Source: a virus. From it: a stretch of 64,000 bases of DNA. Under the pieces are notes generated by a model. That model did no database searches and was not told the origin of the DNA. It was given only the letters and a program-made list of their open reading frames with translations. The translations under genes and the position numbers were made by a program. The stretch lies in IMG/VR virus record IMGVR_UViG_3300030339_000011, positions 1-64,000 of that record, one strand, 5' to 3'. Of this stretch, positions 59,773 through 64,000 are shown in pieces. Each line of letters opens with the position of its first letter. Positions within the stretch are counted from its first letter, which is position 1.

Positions 59773-61299
59773 ATGATAAATATACAATTAGCAAGTGAAG
59801 AATGGGTTGAGGAACAGTTTGGCGGAGGTACTGGTGGATCAACAGGCAACACAAATTCAGTAACTGATGTTACATATAATGAATTAACATCATTAATTAA
59901 TACTAATAATTTAACTATTGGTGGACAATATTTAATTACTGATTATCAAACAGTACATAAGATACCTAATACAACTGATATAAATAGTGGAATGACAGAA
60001 CCTTTATTAGTTACAGCAAGTGGAGTTAATAAATTAAAGCCTGAGGCATATTCAAGTTTATTTCCTCAGGATATAATTTACTATAATTACTATAGTGATC
60101 AGACTATGGTAATTGGATGTACTAAAGGTTACATTTATAGAAGGATAGATACTGCACAGAACAATGATATTCCTTTTGATTTTAGGAATGTTAAGTTTAG
60201 AAGATGGCAAATAAATGTTAGTGAAGTTTGGAATTCTGGAACAACATATAATCGTAATAATGTTGTTTTAAGCGGTAATACAAATAATATTCTGTATGTT
60301 AGTATAGTAAGTGGAAATACAGGTAATCAGTTAAGTAATACTAATTATTGGAATACATTTTATATGATAAGTAACAAATCATATGTAAGTACGACAAGTG
60401 TAGGATATCAGTTTAATGCTTTATATTTACCTTGTTCTACTGGTTATACAGATTATAATATGTGGAGTAATTGGAATGATTATAATACTAGTTTTAATAA
60501 TATTATAGATAAACAATTTTTAATTCCTATGTCAAATATATATGGATCAGATATGATTACATATTCAAATAATGTAATATTTGGTTATCAATTTAATAAC
60601 AATAAAATAGGTTCATATTTTTTCAACAATACTATTTTTAATTCATTTAGTTTTAATAAAATAGGTTCATATTTTTTCAATAATTTGATTGGTTTTGGAT
60701 TTAATAATAATTCAATAAAAAACAATTTTTCTGATAATTTATTAGATGATTTTTTTCAAAATAATTCAATAGATGATTATTTTGACAGTAATATTATTGG
60801 AATAAATTTTAGATTTAATACAATTGGAGGTATGATTAATTGGAATACAATTTTGAATAATTTTCAGTATAATACAATTGGAAATGCTTTTCAAAATAAT
60901 AGTATAGGAAGTTTATTTAATAATAATACTATTTTTGGTAATTTTTATTATAATACTATCGGAAGTAATTTTCAAAATAATACGATTGAAAATGTATTTA
61001 CATTTAATAATATTATAATGTATTTTCAAAATAATAGTATAGAAAGTTATTTTAATAGTAATACAATTGGAAGTAATTTTCAATATAATACAATTGGAAG
61101 TTATTTTAATAGTAATACAATTGGAAGCAATTTTACAATGAATAATGTTTGTGATTATTTTAATTTTGATCATAGTGGATTAAATTTCACATCATCCACT
61201 CATGTTTATAATCAATATTCTAAAGATTTATTTGTTAATTCATCAGGTCAAAGAAAATTAATTTATGATAAAGTAACAATAGTAGATGCTACTGCATAA
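59773..61299 (+). CDS. famF fibre-like protein, 508 aa (MINIQLASEEWV anchor, GGGTGGSTG, core domain, octapeptide repeats, conserved C-terminus)
   Basis: VTDVTYNELTSLINTNNLTIGGQYLITDYQTVH..TEPLLVTASGVNKLKPEAYSSLFPQDIIYYN..TKGYIYRRIDTAQNNDIPFDFRNVKFRRWQI ... STHVYNQYSKDLFVNSSGQRKLIYDKVTIVDATA. Confidence 0.75.
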   Translation: MINIQLASEEWVEEQFGGGTGGSTGNTNSVTDVTYNELTSLINTNNLTIGGQYLITDYQTVHKIPNTTDINSGMTEPLLVTASGVNKLKPEAYSSLFPQDIIYYNYYSDQTMVIGCTKGYIYRRIDTAQNNDIPFDFRNVKFRRWQINVSEVWNSGTTYNRNNVVLSGNTNNILYVSIVSGNTGNQLSNTNYWNTFYMISNKSYVSTTSVGYQFNALYLPCSTGYTDYNMWSNWNDYNTSFNNIIDKQFLIPMSNIYGSDMITYSNNVIFGYQFNNNKIGSYFFNNTIFNSFSFNKIGSYFFNNLIGFGFNNNSIKNNFSDNLLDDFFQNNSIDDYFDSNIIGINFRFNTIGGMINWNTILNNFQYNTIGNAFQNNSIGSLFNNNTIFGNFYYNTIGSNFQNNTIENVFTFNNIIMYFQNNSIESYFNSNTIGSNFQYNTIGSYFNSNTIGSNFTMNNVCDYFNFDHSGLNFTSSTHVYNQYSKDLFVNSSGQRKLIYDKVTIVDATA

Positions 61300-61318
61300 T
61301 TATTTTGAATATTTTGAT

Positions 61319-61900
61319 ATGGTATATTTTATAAATTTACCAATTAGGACTGATAGATATGATAACATAATGAATATGTTTAGAATATTAAATATAACTA
61401 AATATAAGAAAATTGTTCCTATCACTGATGATATTAGTTCTACTAAATCTTGTAAATCATCTCATATTAGTTGTATAGATGATGCTATAGAAAATGATTA
61501 TGATAAGATATTTATATTTGAGGATGATGTTTGTTTTAATCAGGATAACATAGAGATTGAAAAAAAATTAGATTATCATTTAGATATTTGTTTTAATTTT
61601 TTAAAGAACAATAATTGGAATTTATTTTATTTTGATAATATGATACAATTCAGGAAGGAGAATAATATCATTAAAGGAATATTCAGAGATAAAGTACATA
61701 AAGGAATTGAAAAAATTCCAGGTAAATTATTCACTCATAGTTATGCTATTCATAAAGAATCTTTTAAATGTATAAAGGATTTTGCATCATCTGATTTAAA
61801 TATTGATAGTATTTTATATATTATAAAATTGGACAATAAGTATATGTATTGTGAGGGAATATTTGATCAATCGTTAAATATAACATCTGATATTAATTAA
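61319..61900 (+). CDS. Glycosyltransferase family 25-like protein (start moved to the internal MVYFINLP)
   Basis: MVYFINLPIRTDRYDNIMNMF resembles the GT25 N-terminus. The IFIFEDDVCF segment has the DD motif. Track ORF is 61286..61900. Confidence 0.55.
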   Translation: MVYFINLPIRTDRYDNIMNMFRILNITKYKKIVPITDDISSTKSCKSSHISCIDDAIENDYDKIFIFEDDVCFNQDNIEIEKKLDYHLDICFNFLKNNNWNLFYFDNMIQFRKENNIIKGIFRDKVHKGIEKIPGKLFTHSYAIHKESFKCIKDFASSDLNIDSILYIIKLDNKYMYCEGIFDQSLNITSDIN

Positions 61901-61903
61901 ACA

Positions 61904-61937
61904 AAAACTCAGTTAAAATAATTTAACTGAGTTTTTT
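61904..61937. terminator. Hairpin AAAAACTCAGTTAAAATAATTTAACTGAGTTTTTT
   Basis: Same stem as the fibre-gene terminators at 37048, 38995, 40896 and 63568. Confidence 0.55.
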
Positions 61938-61972
61938 AGTTTGTTAATTTATATATAGAAATAAAATGATAA

Positions 61973-63550
61973 ATGATAAATATACAATTAGCAAGTGAAG
62001 AGTGGGTTGAAGGACAATTAGGCGGAGGTACTGGTGGTTCTTCAGTAACTAATGTTACATATAATGAATTGGGCGATTTGATTAATAATAGTGTATTAAC
62101 AATTGGAAGTCAGTATTTGATTACAGATTATCAGACTATTTATATTGATGCATATTATGGAAATACTTTCACTGGTATAATTGAACCTTTATTAGTAACA
62201 GCTAGTGGAGTTAATACATTAAAACCAGAAGCATATTCAGCATTATATCCTAAGGATATTATATATTATGATTTCAATAATAATACTAATGTTATACATG
62301 GTTCTACTAAAGGATATATTTATAGAAGGATAGATACAATACAGAATAATGATATGCCTTTTGATTTTAGAAATTTTAAGATTGTAAATAATTATATAAG
62401 TAGTGGAGTTACAGTTTATAATTTTTTTGTTGATTATTCAACTGCTTTTAATAATAAAATAGGAGCACTAAATTATAGAATAGATCAAAATAATTCTATA
62501 ATTTTAGGAAGTAATTTTCGTGATAATACAATAGGAGATGGTTTTAATAGTAATACAATAGGAAGCAATTTTAAGAATAATAAAATAGGAACTGGTTTTT
62601 CAGGTAATACAATAGGAGACAATTTTAATGATAATAGTATTGAAAATTACTTTATGTATAATTCAATTGGAAAATTTTTTAGTGGTAATACAATTTCAAA
62701 TAATTTTTACCATAATACAATTTCAAATAATTTTTACAATAATATAATTGGAAGTGATTTTAATAAAAATGACAACATAGGAGATAATTTTAACTCTAAT
62801 AATATTGAATCATATTTTCAAAATAATAATATTGATATTAATTTTAGTGGTAATACAATTTCAAATAATTTCAACTATAATACAATTTCAAATAATTTTT
62901 ACAATAATATAATTGGAGGTAATTTTACTAGTAATAATATTGCAAGTAGTTTTTATAATAATTTAATTGGAGCAGATTTTAGTTCCAACTCTAATATTGG
63001 AAATAATTTTAATAATAATTCAATTGGAAGTCTATTTTCCAATAATGATACAATTGGCGCAAATTTCAACTATAATACAATTTCAAATAATTTCAATTTT
63101 AATAGTGTGGATAATTATTATCAATATAATAATATAGGAAGCAACTTTCAATATAATACTATATTAAGTAACTTTCAAAAAAATTCAATTGGAAGTGATT
63201 TTAATACTAATACTTCAATTGGATATGGATTTGAAAGAAATGCAATTGGAAGTAATTTTAATAATAATTCTATTGAAAGTATTTTTAGTGGTAATACAAT
63301 TGTAAGTGATTTTAATTATAATTCAATTGGAAGTAACTTTCAAAATAATTCAATTGGAAGTAACTTTAATACTAATACAATTGGAAGTAATTTTACTATG
63401 AACAATATATGTGATAATTTTGGATCTGGATTAGATTTATCATCATCAACATATATCTATTTAGCCTATACTAAAAACTTATATGTTGATTCAACAGGGC
63501 TTAACAAGTTAGTATATGATGTGACAACAATAGTAGATGTCATTGAATAA
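61973..63550 (+). CDS. famF fibre-like protein, 525 aa
   Basis: MINIQLASEEWVEGQLGGGTGGSSVTNVTYNELGDLINNS.. core, long block of NNIIGSDF-type octapeptide repeats, diverged C-terminus. Confidence 0.75.
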   Translation: MINIQLASEEWVEGQLGGGTGGSSVTNVTYNELGDLINNSVLTIGSQYLITDYQTIYIDAYYGNTFTGIIEPLLVTASGVNTLKPEAYSALYPKDIIYYDFNNNTNVIHGSTKGYIYRRIDTIQNNDMPFDFRNFKIVNNYISSGVTVYNFFVDYSTAFNNKIGALNYRIDQNNSIILGSNFRDNTIGDGFNSNTIGSNFKNNKIGTGFSGNTIGDNFNDNSIENYFMYNSIGKFFSGNTISNNFYHNTISNNFYNNIIGSDFNKNDNIGDNFNSNNIESYFQNNNIDINFSGNTISNNFNYNTISNNFYNNIIGGNFTSNNIASSFYNNLIGADFSSNSNIGNNFNNNSIGSLFSNNDTIGANFNYNTISNNFNFNSVDNYYQYNNIGSNFQYNTILSNFQKNSIGSDFNTNTSIGYGFERNAIGSNFNNNSIESIFSGNTIVSDFNYNSIGSNFQNNSIGSNFNTNTIGSNFTMNNICDNFGSGLDLSSSTYIYLAYTKNLYVDSTGLNKLVYDVTTIVDVIE

Positions 63551-63567
63551 TTAGATTTATAAAAAAT

Positions 63568-63598
63568 TAAAAACTCAGTTAATTTAACTGAGTTTTTT
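63568..63598. terminator. Hairpin AAAAACTCAGTTAATTTAACTGAGTTTTTT
   Basis: Palindrome with a T-run. Confidence 0.55.
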
Positions 63599-63649
63599 AT
63601 TTATTGTTTAATCAGTTAGTTTAATTTATATATAGAAATAAAATTAACT

Positions 63650-64000
63650 ATGATAAATATTCAATTGGTGAGTGAAGAATGGGTTGAAGGAAGGTTATCT
63701 GGAACAACAGGTGGATCAACAGGTACGTCTGGTACATCAGGTCAAAATGGAACTAGTGGAACAGCAGGTAGATCAGGCACATCTGGACAGAATGGATCAA
63801 CTGGAAACACAGGAAGTTCTGGTAATTCAGGAACGTCAGGAACTTCAGGACAGAATGGATCTGCTGGAAATTCAGGAACTTCTGGTACATCAGGTTCAGG
63901 AACATCTGGAACATCTGGTAATTCTCCTAGTGGAAGTACAAGTACAGTTACAAATTTGACATATAATAGTTTATCTAATTTAATATCTTCAAATGGATTA
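63650..64000 (+). CDS. famF fibre-like protein with a long collagen-like GXY tract; partial, runs off the window
   Basis: MINIQLVSEEWVEGRLSGTTGGS, then about 28 uninterrupted G-X-Y triplets (GTSGTSGQNGTSGTAGRSG...), then VTNLTYNSLSNLISSNGL, where the core domain begins. Confidence 0.7.
   Translation, partial: MINIQLVSEEWVEGRLSGTTGGSTGTSGTSGQNGTSGTAGRSGTSGQNGSTGNTGSSGNSGTSGTSGQNGSAGNSGTSGTSGSGTSGTSGNSPSGSTSTVTNLTYNSLSNLISSNGL

Follow-up and report, generated by a model that had tools for sequence, protein, structure and literature searches.

Why should a virus keep a glycosyltransferase gene within a row of fibre-like genes, and what might the enzyme modify? The question is raised by a module at positions 59773-64000 of the IMG/VR virus record IMGVR_UViG_3300030339_000011, of which we analysed positions 1-64,000 (this whole stretch of 64,000 nucleotides is referred to as the window). 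The original prediction had described the module as three tandem fibre-like genes, one of them with a collagen-like Gly-X-Y (GXY) tract, with an embedded gene for a family 25 glycosyltransferase (GT25), and had suggested a glycosylated collagen-like surface fibre. By the analysis presented here, the module is probably best explained as a set of fibre cassettes of a myovirus with a coupled GT25 gene, the enzyme perhaps acting on a fibre or solenoid protein. The receptor-binding proteins of a phage decide which bacteria it infects.

Fibre genes of a large tailed phage

The module was found to hold four plus-strand genes, encoding proteins of 508, 204 and 525 residues and the first 117 codons of the gene that starts at 63650. 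The GC content of the window is 21-30%. The same DNA was found on metagenome contigs, with one mismatch in 12,028 nucleotides between contig L002 and the window; one such contig is 126.5 kb in length, and identical proteins occur on contigs of up to 235 kb. On L002, the gene at 63650 is complete (11678-13468, 596 residues) and is followed, past the window end, by genes for a 653-residue beta-helix-like protein, a 130-residue protein and a 581-residue collagen-bearing paralog. By all-against-all BLAST, the proteins of 59773, 61973 and 63650 clustered with those of 37087-38970, 39034-40872 and 40934-43333, with 54302-55303 joining through its N-terminus only. The three tandem fibre-like genes were thus confirmed as plus-strand members of one paralog family, here termed famF.

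Database comparison placed this family among the tail fibres of phages. PF07880 (T4_gp9_10_N) was detected in 37087 and 39034 at 29.8 and 27.7 bits, respectively (cut-off 25), and these gp9/10-type N-termini were also matched by PHROG 677, 'baseplate wedge tail fiber protein connector', with an E value of 1.8e-9. For the first 35 residues of the two proteins, matches with 60-69% identity were found in 848 phage records, which carry annotations as gp9/gp10-type connectors and come mostly from T4-like coliphages and cyanomyoviruses. Residues 29-133 of 61973 were 41.7% identical to an annotated tail fibre of Clostridium phage phiCT453A, the gene for which lies directly after that for baseplate J/XkdU, and the first ~105 residues of the famF core were found to be 38-45% identical to gp99 of the Sphingomonas jumbo phage PAU, to a protein of a 636-kb uncultured phage and to the phiCT453A tail fibre. 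When fibre 61973 was used in tblastn, only 5 records were matched, each over ~20% of the query, and megablast of positions 56000-64000 against 50,697 phage records gave no match.

A search with the core domain returned 1725 cluster representatives (50% clustering level) at an E value of at most 1e-3. The core was located at variable positions within proteins of 105-1760 residues and, thus, behaves as a mobile fibre module; family members elsewhere carry Phage_fiber_rpt, BppL_N or long collagen-tract N-termini. The famF fibre family is uncharacterised but widespread. Based on these sequence similarities, the region is very likely part of the receptor-binding fibre set of a large uncultured tailed phage, most readily a myovirus whose baseplate resembles that of T4, and, as a multi-fibre cluster of such a phage, it is of a familiar kind. 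The gp9/10-type N-termini and the homology to the phiCT453A tail fibre speak for tailed-phage receptor-binding fibres in place of the mimivirus-type fibrils or bacterial adhesins to which the module had been likened. Hints of a Bacteroidota host, which is not established, come from the Fib_succ_major domain of one paralog, matches to Bacteroidales and Paludibacter metagenome-assembled genomes (MAGs), crAss-like relatives, and the fact that no Shine-Dalgarno sequence is visible before the fibre genes.

Architecture of the famF proteins

The 508-residue paralog (59773..61299, plus strand) has no collagen tract and consists of an adaptor (MINIQLASEEWV), a Gly linker, a core (residues 33-276), 21 nonapeptide repeats (277-465) and a C-terminal cap. 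The 525-residue paralog (61973..63550, plus strand) shares this adaptor and combines about 33 nonapeptide repeats with a short core (28-184), from which the second half (second subdomain) is missing; the third gene of the module (63650..64000, plus strand, cut by the window end) encodes a fibre with a collagen-like spacer. Three further paralogs lie on the minus strand. The 627-residue protein of 37087..38970 has a T4 gp9/10-type N-terminus, 8 GXY triplets and 23 in-register nonapeptide repeats (379-585); the 612-residue protein of 39034..40872 has a T4 gp9/10-type baseplate-connector N-terminus and 9 GXY triplets; and the 799-residue protein of 40934..43333 was found by Pfam and paralog comparison to have a Fib_succ_major domain inserted between adaptor and core. 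A 1760-residue relative at locus L013 (732-6014) contains three stretches that match the N-terminal region of 40934.

The famF proteins had been predicted to share three parts, namely a 12-residue N-terminal motif, a core and a C-terminal segment. The core and the C-terminal segment, S-[ST]-[HY]-[VI]-Y...KL.YD, were found to be common to the paralogs; the N-terminal motif MINIQLASEEWV, with the pattern I-Q-L-A-x-x-x-W-V, was present in four of the six, with 37087 and 39034 starting instead with T4_gp9_10_N. The repeat block also differed from the 8-residue unit in 20-45 copies that had been described. A period of 9 was indicated by an Asn-Asn spacing peak at 9 in all seven of the seven paralogs examined, and successive anchored repeat units were exactly 9 residues apart in 125 of 168 cases. 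Each protein has 21-33 such units, which follow the consensus N(100%)-[ST]-I(86%)-G(58%)-S-x-F(84%)-x-x.

In the structure model, the nonapeptide block is predicted to form a narrow right-handed beta-solenoid with Ile and Phe at two conserved hydrophobic positions. The beta-helical shaft that had been proposed is, thus, supported at the level of modelling, with the nonapeptide as its building block. The model is of a monomer; collagen-like spacers and gp9/10-type heads imply trimers, and the real fibre protein is probably a trimer. A triple-stranded beta-helix of the T4 gp5C/VgrG type, of which an octapeptide repeat is a feature, was ruled out by the period of 9 in all seven paralogs. The pentapeptide-repeat proteins (PF00805) were likewise tried as the identity of famF and rejected, as the A(D/N)LXX five-residue repeat of that family was not found. 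N-X-S/T sequons within the repeats were considered as N-glycosylation sites and dropped, since inspection showed no in-register conservation of the sequon. Pfam, PHROGs and NCBIfam offered no model for the body of the fibre: the core of 59773 and 61973 had no Pfam match, PHROGs had no family for 59773, 61973 or GT25, NCBIfam gave no match for GT25 or fibre 59773, and a phmmer search of fibre 37087 against PDB sequences gave none.

The N-terminal adaptor (either the 12-residue peptide or the T4 gp9/gp10-type connector domain), which would dock the fibre to the virion, is followed, in order, by a Gly-rich linker or a G-[TS]-[SN] collagen-like spacer, the core, 21-33 nonapeptide repeats and the C-terminal cap. 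At least seven paralogs and one beta-helix spike may give the phage several binding specificities. Related N-termini were also detected outside of famF. The 333-residue protein of 54302..55303 (minus strand) joins the adaptor MINIQLASEEWV and a Gly linker to an unrelated C-terminal domain with no Pfam match, and is probably another virion-attached protein docked by the same peptide. The 653-residue protein encoded on L002 (13570-15933, plus strand), 1.5-3.9 kb past the window end, is Asn/Ser/Gly-rich and beta-helix-like; it has a related N-terminus (MDEIIYLANQNWV), and its match to choice-of-anchor-Q is just under the cut-off.

The collagen-like tract is real and lacks lysine and proline

The collagen-like tract of the 63650 protein (63713..63901, plus strand; residues 22-84) was found to be composed of 21 uninterrupted G-X-Y triplets, mostly G-T-S, G-Q-N and G-N-S. 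About 28 uninterrupted triplets had been claimed, and the run reaches ~25 if two one-residue breaks are tolerated. The tract itself passes a Pfam profile search (PF01391, Collagen) at 34.6 bits against a cut-off of 27.2; it also matched PHROGs 5073, 366 and 1806 ('collagen like minor tail') and 'tail fiber' PHROGs, with E values down to 4.7e-11. The shorter tracts expected in 37087 and 39034 were likewise present, with 8 and 9 triplets. The 63 residues of the 63650 tract include 29 Ser and Thr, no Pro, no Lys and no charged residues; this composition is atypical, as tracts that form a triple helix are usually rich in Pro/hydroxyproline or in charge pairs. Collagen tracts were detected in 13 of 120 family members; Lys was absent from those of 12 of the 13 collagen-bearing relatives, with 1 Lys in the tract of the sister gene.

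GT25 is a predicted GT-A enzyme of a phage clade

The GT25 gene (61286..61900, plus strand) encodes a protein of 204 residues that was identified by Pfam, by its fold model and by an invariant E79-D80-D81. Residues 53-161 matched PF01755 at 33.4 bits (gathering score 24), and a precomputed PF01755 match was found in 54 of 54 homologues; the GT25 call of the original prediction therefore withstood the profile search. The start of the gene had been set at 61319 and was moved to 61286, as conservation among 13 homologues extends over the additional residues 1-11, with an invariant D11. An AlphaFold model of the protein displayed a complete GT-A fold, with a predicted local distance difference test score (pLDDT) of 92.8 and a predicted template modelling score (pTM) of 0.90.

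When this model was compared to the PDB by Foldseek, the matches included COLGALT1 (E 1.7e-10 to 1e-9; TMq 0.65), mimivirus R655 (6e-9) and the bacterial GT25 structures 8xc8 and 8xkd (3e-8 to 1e-6). Identity to these solved members is 13-20%. Sequence-profile comparison gave remote matches to the bacterial GT25 beta-1,4-galactosyltransferase (5.9e-5), COLGALT1 (~1e-3) and R655 (7e-3). Since the profile ranking is the reverse of the structural ranking and all of these matches are remote, the enzyme shows no special affinity to those acting on collagen. Across 14 sequences, F78-E79-D80-D81 and 27 other positions were invariant; conserved motifs include H-S-Y-A and G-I-F-D-Q, and the FEDD aligns with that of 8xc8 and COLGALT1. 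The invariance of F-E-D-D and the 27 other positions argues for a working enzyme. The clade comprises ~32 cluster representatives and, among 185,579 species genomes, was detected in only one phage-like Paludibacter MAG contig, with one further distant (26%) match. As judged from these searches, this clade of small GT-A enzymes is phage-specific.

Fibre genes form cassettes, one of which includes GT25

A 17-nucleotide motif, TATATATAGAAATAAAA, which resembles a promoter or 5' leader, was found 7 nucleotides before the ATG of 59773 (59749..59765, plus strand), with counterparts upstream of fibres 61973 (61950..61966, plus strand) and 63650 (63627..63643, plus strand). With up to 2 mismatches allowed, the motif had 6 matches in the window, all 5-10 nucleotides 5' of famF start codons. 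By alignment, ATATATA..AATAAAA is invariant 5' of nine fibre-type genes; a degenerate copy lies 5' of 54302, and further copies precede fibre-type genes past the window end.

At the other end of the units, a palindromic, bidirectional terminator-like hairpin (AAAAACTCAGTTAA..TTAACTGAGTTTTT; 61903..61936, corresponding to L002 9931-9964) closes the cassette of fibre 59773 and GT25. Terminator-like hairpins were also detected after fibre 61973 (63569..63597) and after 37087 (37053..37076), the latter with identical copies after the other two minus-strand fibres (39000-39023 and 40902-40925). Exact hairpin matches numbered 4 versus 0 expected, and terminator-like sites found by scan numbered 11 versus 1.1 expected. 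The hairpin lies directly 3' of 37087, 39034, 40934, 61973 and GT25, with none between 59773 and GT25; past the window end, it follows the genes for the 596-, 130- and 581-residue proteins and not that for the 653-residue protein. It was found only after famF units. From the placement of motif and hairpin, the units are 59773 with GT25, 61973 alone, 63650 alone, the 653- and 130-residue proteins together, and the 581-residue protein alone. Thus, each fibre is a self-contained cassette of AT-rich motif, open reading frame (ORF) and shared palindromic terminator. The 653- and 130-residue proteins, encoded in one transcription unit, mirror the pair of fibre and GT25.

The junction between fibre 59773 and GT25 is tight. 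The GT25 ATG lies within the V-D-A codons of the fibre, the two genes overlap by 14 nucleotides, and codons 4-5 of GT25 contain the TAA of the fibre. No upstream motif precedes GT25 itself. This overlap junction, GTAG-ATG-CT..GCATAA, is kept at L007, L009 and L013, where GT25 is 83%, 59% and 61% identical, respectively. As read from the sequence, GT25 is the second cistron in the cassette of 59773, to which it is coupled translationally.

GT25 follows fibre and spike genes across phage lineages

The gene neighbourhood of the clade was compared at the 12 loci for which upstream context was available (window included), with IMG/VR relatives of 26-35% identity, which occur in other contexts including giant-virus MAGs, left out of the synteny argument. 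At all 12 loci, GT25 (or the first of a tandem pair) was located directly 3' of a fibre or spike gene or, at two loci, two genes after one, and most upstream partners were repeat or beta-solenoid proteins. The partner is a famF fibre in the window and at L007, L009, L013 (1760 residues) and L018. It is a fibre of at least 3365 residues with SNFIG-type repeats at L010 and a 1123-residue fibre in a crAss-like phage at L011, each with two GT25 genes behind it. At L061 (crAss-like) and L062, GT25 is preceded by pentapeptide-repeat proteins of 351 and 367 residues, respectively, and at L063 by a 453-residue protein with 20-residue repeats. The two loci with one gene between are L058, where a 314-residue protein with ~20-residue repeats lies two genes upstream of GT25 inside a crAss structural module, and L060, where a LamG fibre is found at this distance. 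Among 13 clade loci, a GXY run of at least 7 triplets was present in the examined flanks of only L002 (the window's own contig), L009 and L018, and no crAss-like GT25 locus had such a run in its examined flanks.

As far as our searches show, this conserved coupling of fibre to GT25 is undescribed: in the literature on GT25 or other glycosyltransferases with phage tail fibres or crAss-like phages, no description of the arrangement was found. Crass-like phages carry the clade as tandem pairs in the structural module near the Crass_capsid gene (L011 5304-6612; L058 6370-7669). L010 (1-15820) belongs to a different large phage (36% GC, on a 139-kb contig), in which the two GT25 genes are followed by a gene for a 1984-residue protein with CTP_transf_like and PolyA_pol domains.

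What GT25 may modify

The regular position of GT25 after fibre or spike genes fits a fibre or solenoid protein as the substrate. Glycosylation of a virion protein, the fibre, by GT25 is the reading that we favour for the enzyme, although tentatively and at somewhat less than even likelihood. On this reading, GT25 would act late and in the cytoplasm, on Ser, Thr or Asn side chains of the fibre or solenoid and not on collagen hydroxylysine. It is slightly more conjectural that the small GT25 enzymes form a phage-only clade dedicated to beta-solenoid receptor-binding proteins, encoded as coupled second cistrons in jumbo myoviruses and crAss-like phages, and that, where a paralog bears collagen, they may add stability to its proline-free G-T-S triple helices. 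For mycobacteriophages, glycosylation of virion proteins by phage enzymes is reported (Freeman et al. 2023, as cited in PMC12619734); in that case, the glycans are on capsid and tail tube, not on fibres. While the domain calls, the arrangement in cassettes and the conserved synteny are shown, fibre glycosylation is inferred, and several points weigh against the explanation as a whole. One GT25 is set against at least seven fibre paralogs. Foldseek gave no PDB match for the fibre model, a monomer model of a protein that is probably a trimer, and no capsid, terminase or baseplate genes were seen in the window itself. Tight packing 3' of tail-fibre genes is also the site of phage morons, and the characterised bacterial GT25 enzymes act on lipopolysaccharide (LPS) or lipooligosaccharide (LOS).

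The last of these points leads to a serious rival, which we consider rather unlikely: GT25 may modify a host envelope glycan (LPS/LOS core, O-antigen or capsule) and so block superinfection or the adsorption of progeny to debris, its linkage to fibres being a result of joint selection of receptor and masking enzyme. The Pfam family name refers to LPS biosynthesis, as does the Joint Genome Institute (JGI) label of one homologue ('GR25 family glycosyltransferase involved in LPS biosynthesis'), the bacterial beta-1,4-galactosyltransferase is the top PDB match by sequence profile, and the GT25 genes of cyanomyovirus phages have been interpreted as modifiers of the host surface (PMC12801897), which likewise counts against the fibre as substrate. 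By contrast, the partner fibres are mutually unrelated and probably bind different receptors while the enzyme is 38-83% identical, GT25 comes second in a structural cassette and lacks its own promoter motif, and no companion sugar-pathway or flippase genes were found in the flanks. The clade is also practically absent from bacterial genomes, and hence there is no sign of lysogenic-conversion prophages. Collagen as the substrate fared less well. A glycosylated collagen-like fibre of the animal or mimivirus type, as originally envisaged, is contradicted by a tract with 0 Lys and 0 Pro, by the failure to find a hydroxylase in the 37 ORFs scanned and by the coupling of GT25 to the collagen-free 59773. 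A hydroxylysine galactosyltransferase of the COLGALT1 type was rejected on three grounds: the absence of Lys from the GXY tract leaves no hydroxylysine acceptor; no 2-oxoglutarate (2OG)-oxygenase or lysyl hydroxylase was detected by Pfam in 37 ORFs (35 window ORFs outside four large paralog families and the genes for the 653- and 130-residue proteins); and GT25 is a single domain that aligns only with COLGALT1 residues ~300-400, compared to the two-domain architecture (~600 residues) of that enzyme.

A softened collagen model, in which GT25 would O-glycosylate Thr and Ser of the proline-free G-T-S spacers and stabilise the triple helix without hydroxyproline, is improbable. Beta-Gal-Thr stabilises the cuticle collagen of Riftia, and the collagen-like region of Bacillus BclA is glycosylated on Thr. 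Four fibres of this phage have such tracts, that of 63650 being particularly rich in Ser and Thr and devoid of Pro, the best fold matches include COLGALT1 and mimivirus R655, and GT25 could work in trans on all paralogs. The model is opposed by the paralog to which GT25 is coupled, 59773, which has no tract, by the scarcity of tracts in the family (only 13 of 120 members) and in the examined flanks of GT25 loci (9 of 13, all crAss-like ones included, lack a GXY run of 7 or more triplets), and by a profile similarity to COLGALT1 that is weaker than that to bacterial GT25; the tract holds neither Lys nor hydroxylysine, and the scanned ORFs yielded no hydroxylase. Slightly more doubtful still is that GT25 is a passenger (moron) or a degenerate accessory of glycosyltransferase fold, such as a fibre chaperone. 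Small genes directly 3' of tail-fibre genes typically encode assembly chaperones, the 653-residue spike is likewise followed by a 130-residue protein in one unit, and GT25 is short (204 residues versus 251 for the solved bacterial enzyme); yet its E-D-D motif and 30 other positions, those of H-S-Y-A and G-I-F-D-Q among them, are invariant in homologues down to 38% identity, and the GT-A model is complete and confident. Least probable is an origin of the element from a giant eukaryotic virus, with the fibres as capsid fibrils of the mimivirus type. The GC content of 21-30%, the large paralog arrays that include leucine-rich-repeat proteins, the ankyrin-repeat and major-vault-protein-like proteins, and the distant GT25 relatives in giant-virus MAGs would suit such a virus. 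These features are outweighed by the T4 gp9/10 connector N-terminus and tail-fibre homology, by terminators of bacterial type with flanking A and T tracts, and by the GT25 relatives, of which the closest are in crAss-like phages and those in IMG/VR with at least 59% identity are not GVMAG records.

Comparison to known systems and significance

Among the closest known systems are the phage tailspikes and fibres (CBA120 TSP1-4, P22-type tailspikes and Det7), which combine a single-chain right-handed beta-helix with an N-terminal virion adaptor. The likeness to the T4 gp9/gp10 connectors (PF07880) is limited to the first ~35-60 residues of 37087 and 39034, the rest of which is unrelated; 59773, 61973 and 63650 have a different, uncharacterised 12-residue adaptor. 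An uninterrupted GXY tract near the fibre N-terminus is common to the collagen-like spacers of phage tail fibres, from which the tract described here differs in being of the G-[TS]-[SN] type without Pro, Lys or charged residues. Similarly, GT25 resembles the enzyme of LOS synthesis (PDB 8xc8), COLGALT1 (9evk) and R655 (9crz) in its GT-A fold, E-D-D motif and PF01755 match, whereas it is shorter and single-domain, has no hydroxylysine acceptor, and belongs to a phage-only clade with its own conserved N-terminus (Y-F-D-Y-F-D) and C-terminus (G-I-F-D-Q).

Beta-helical adhesins with dedicated cytoplasmic glycosyltransferases are found in the AIDA-I/Aah, TibA/TibC and HMW1/HMW1C pairs. By analogy, a glycosyltransferase gene that adjoins a repeat-rich beta-helical surface protein would provide for modification before assembly in both cases; the adhesin enzymes differ in being GT9-like heptosyltransferases and GT41, not GT25. 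To our knowledge, virion glycosylation is known only for the capsids and tail tubes of mycobacteriophages. The fibre family is large, yet no isolated phage with the nonapeptide solenoid was found in our searches, and the succession of fibre and GT25 is conserved across phage lineages that are not related to each other, crAss-like phages among them. If fibre glycosylation is true, it would be a widespread and unrecognised layer of control of phage host range or stability, with consequences for host-range prediction, for the engineering of fibres and for the antigenicity of phages used in therapy. If the fibres are not glycosylated, the region would be an ordinary multi-fibre cluster of a jumbo phage.

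Other genes of the window and its surroundings

The plus-strand fibre cluster is flanked on both sides, on the opposite strand, by a family of 126-218-residue proteins (MNKEELSxWFxNKFxSCYPV...) for which no match was found in Pfam or PHROGs. Members were located on the minus strand at 58164-59356, 52530-53898 and 30795-32188 of the window and at 17784-21578 of L002, with two copies just upstream of the fibre cluster and nine in a row just downstream. About half of the 95 ORFs belong to tandem paralog arrays (19427-56831), which include 20 copies of a ~110-residue family (..PE[IV]GDYV[IL]C..), 19 leucine-rich-repeat proteins and smaller families. The N-terminus MK[YH]IKxFE was found on 28 ORFs of different families, and MKIxRFNES on more; this shared N-terminus may serve in targeting or reflect a conserved region of initiation. 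The small ORFs that do not belong to the large families are mostly unannotated, with one DnaJ, one ankyrin-repeat and one GNAT acetyltransferase protein among them. A gene at 7965-10424 (minus strand) encodes an 819-residue protein with the Pfam domains MVP_shoulder (E 9e-28), Vault_3 and Band_7, that is, a major-vault-protein-like/SPFH protein in a phage genome.

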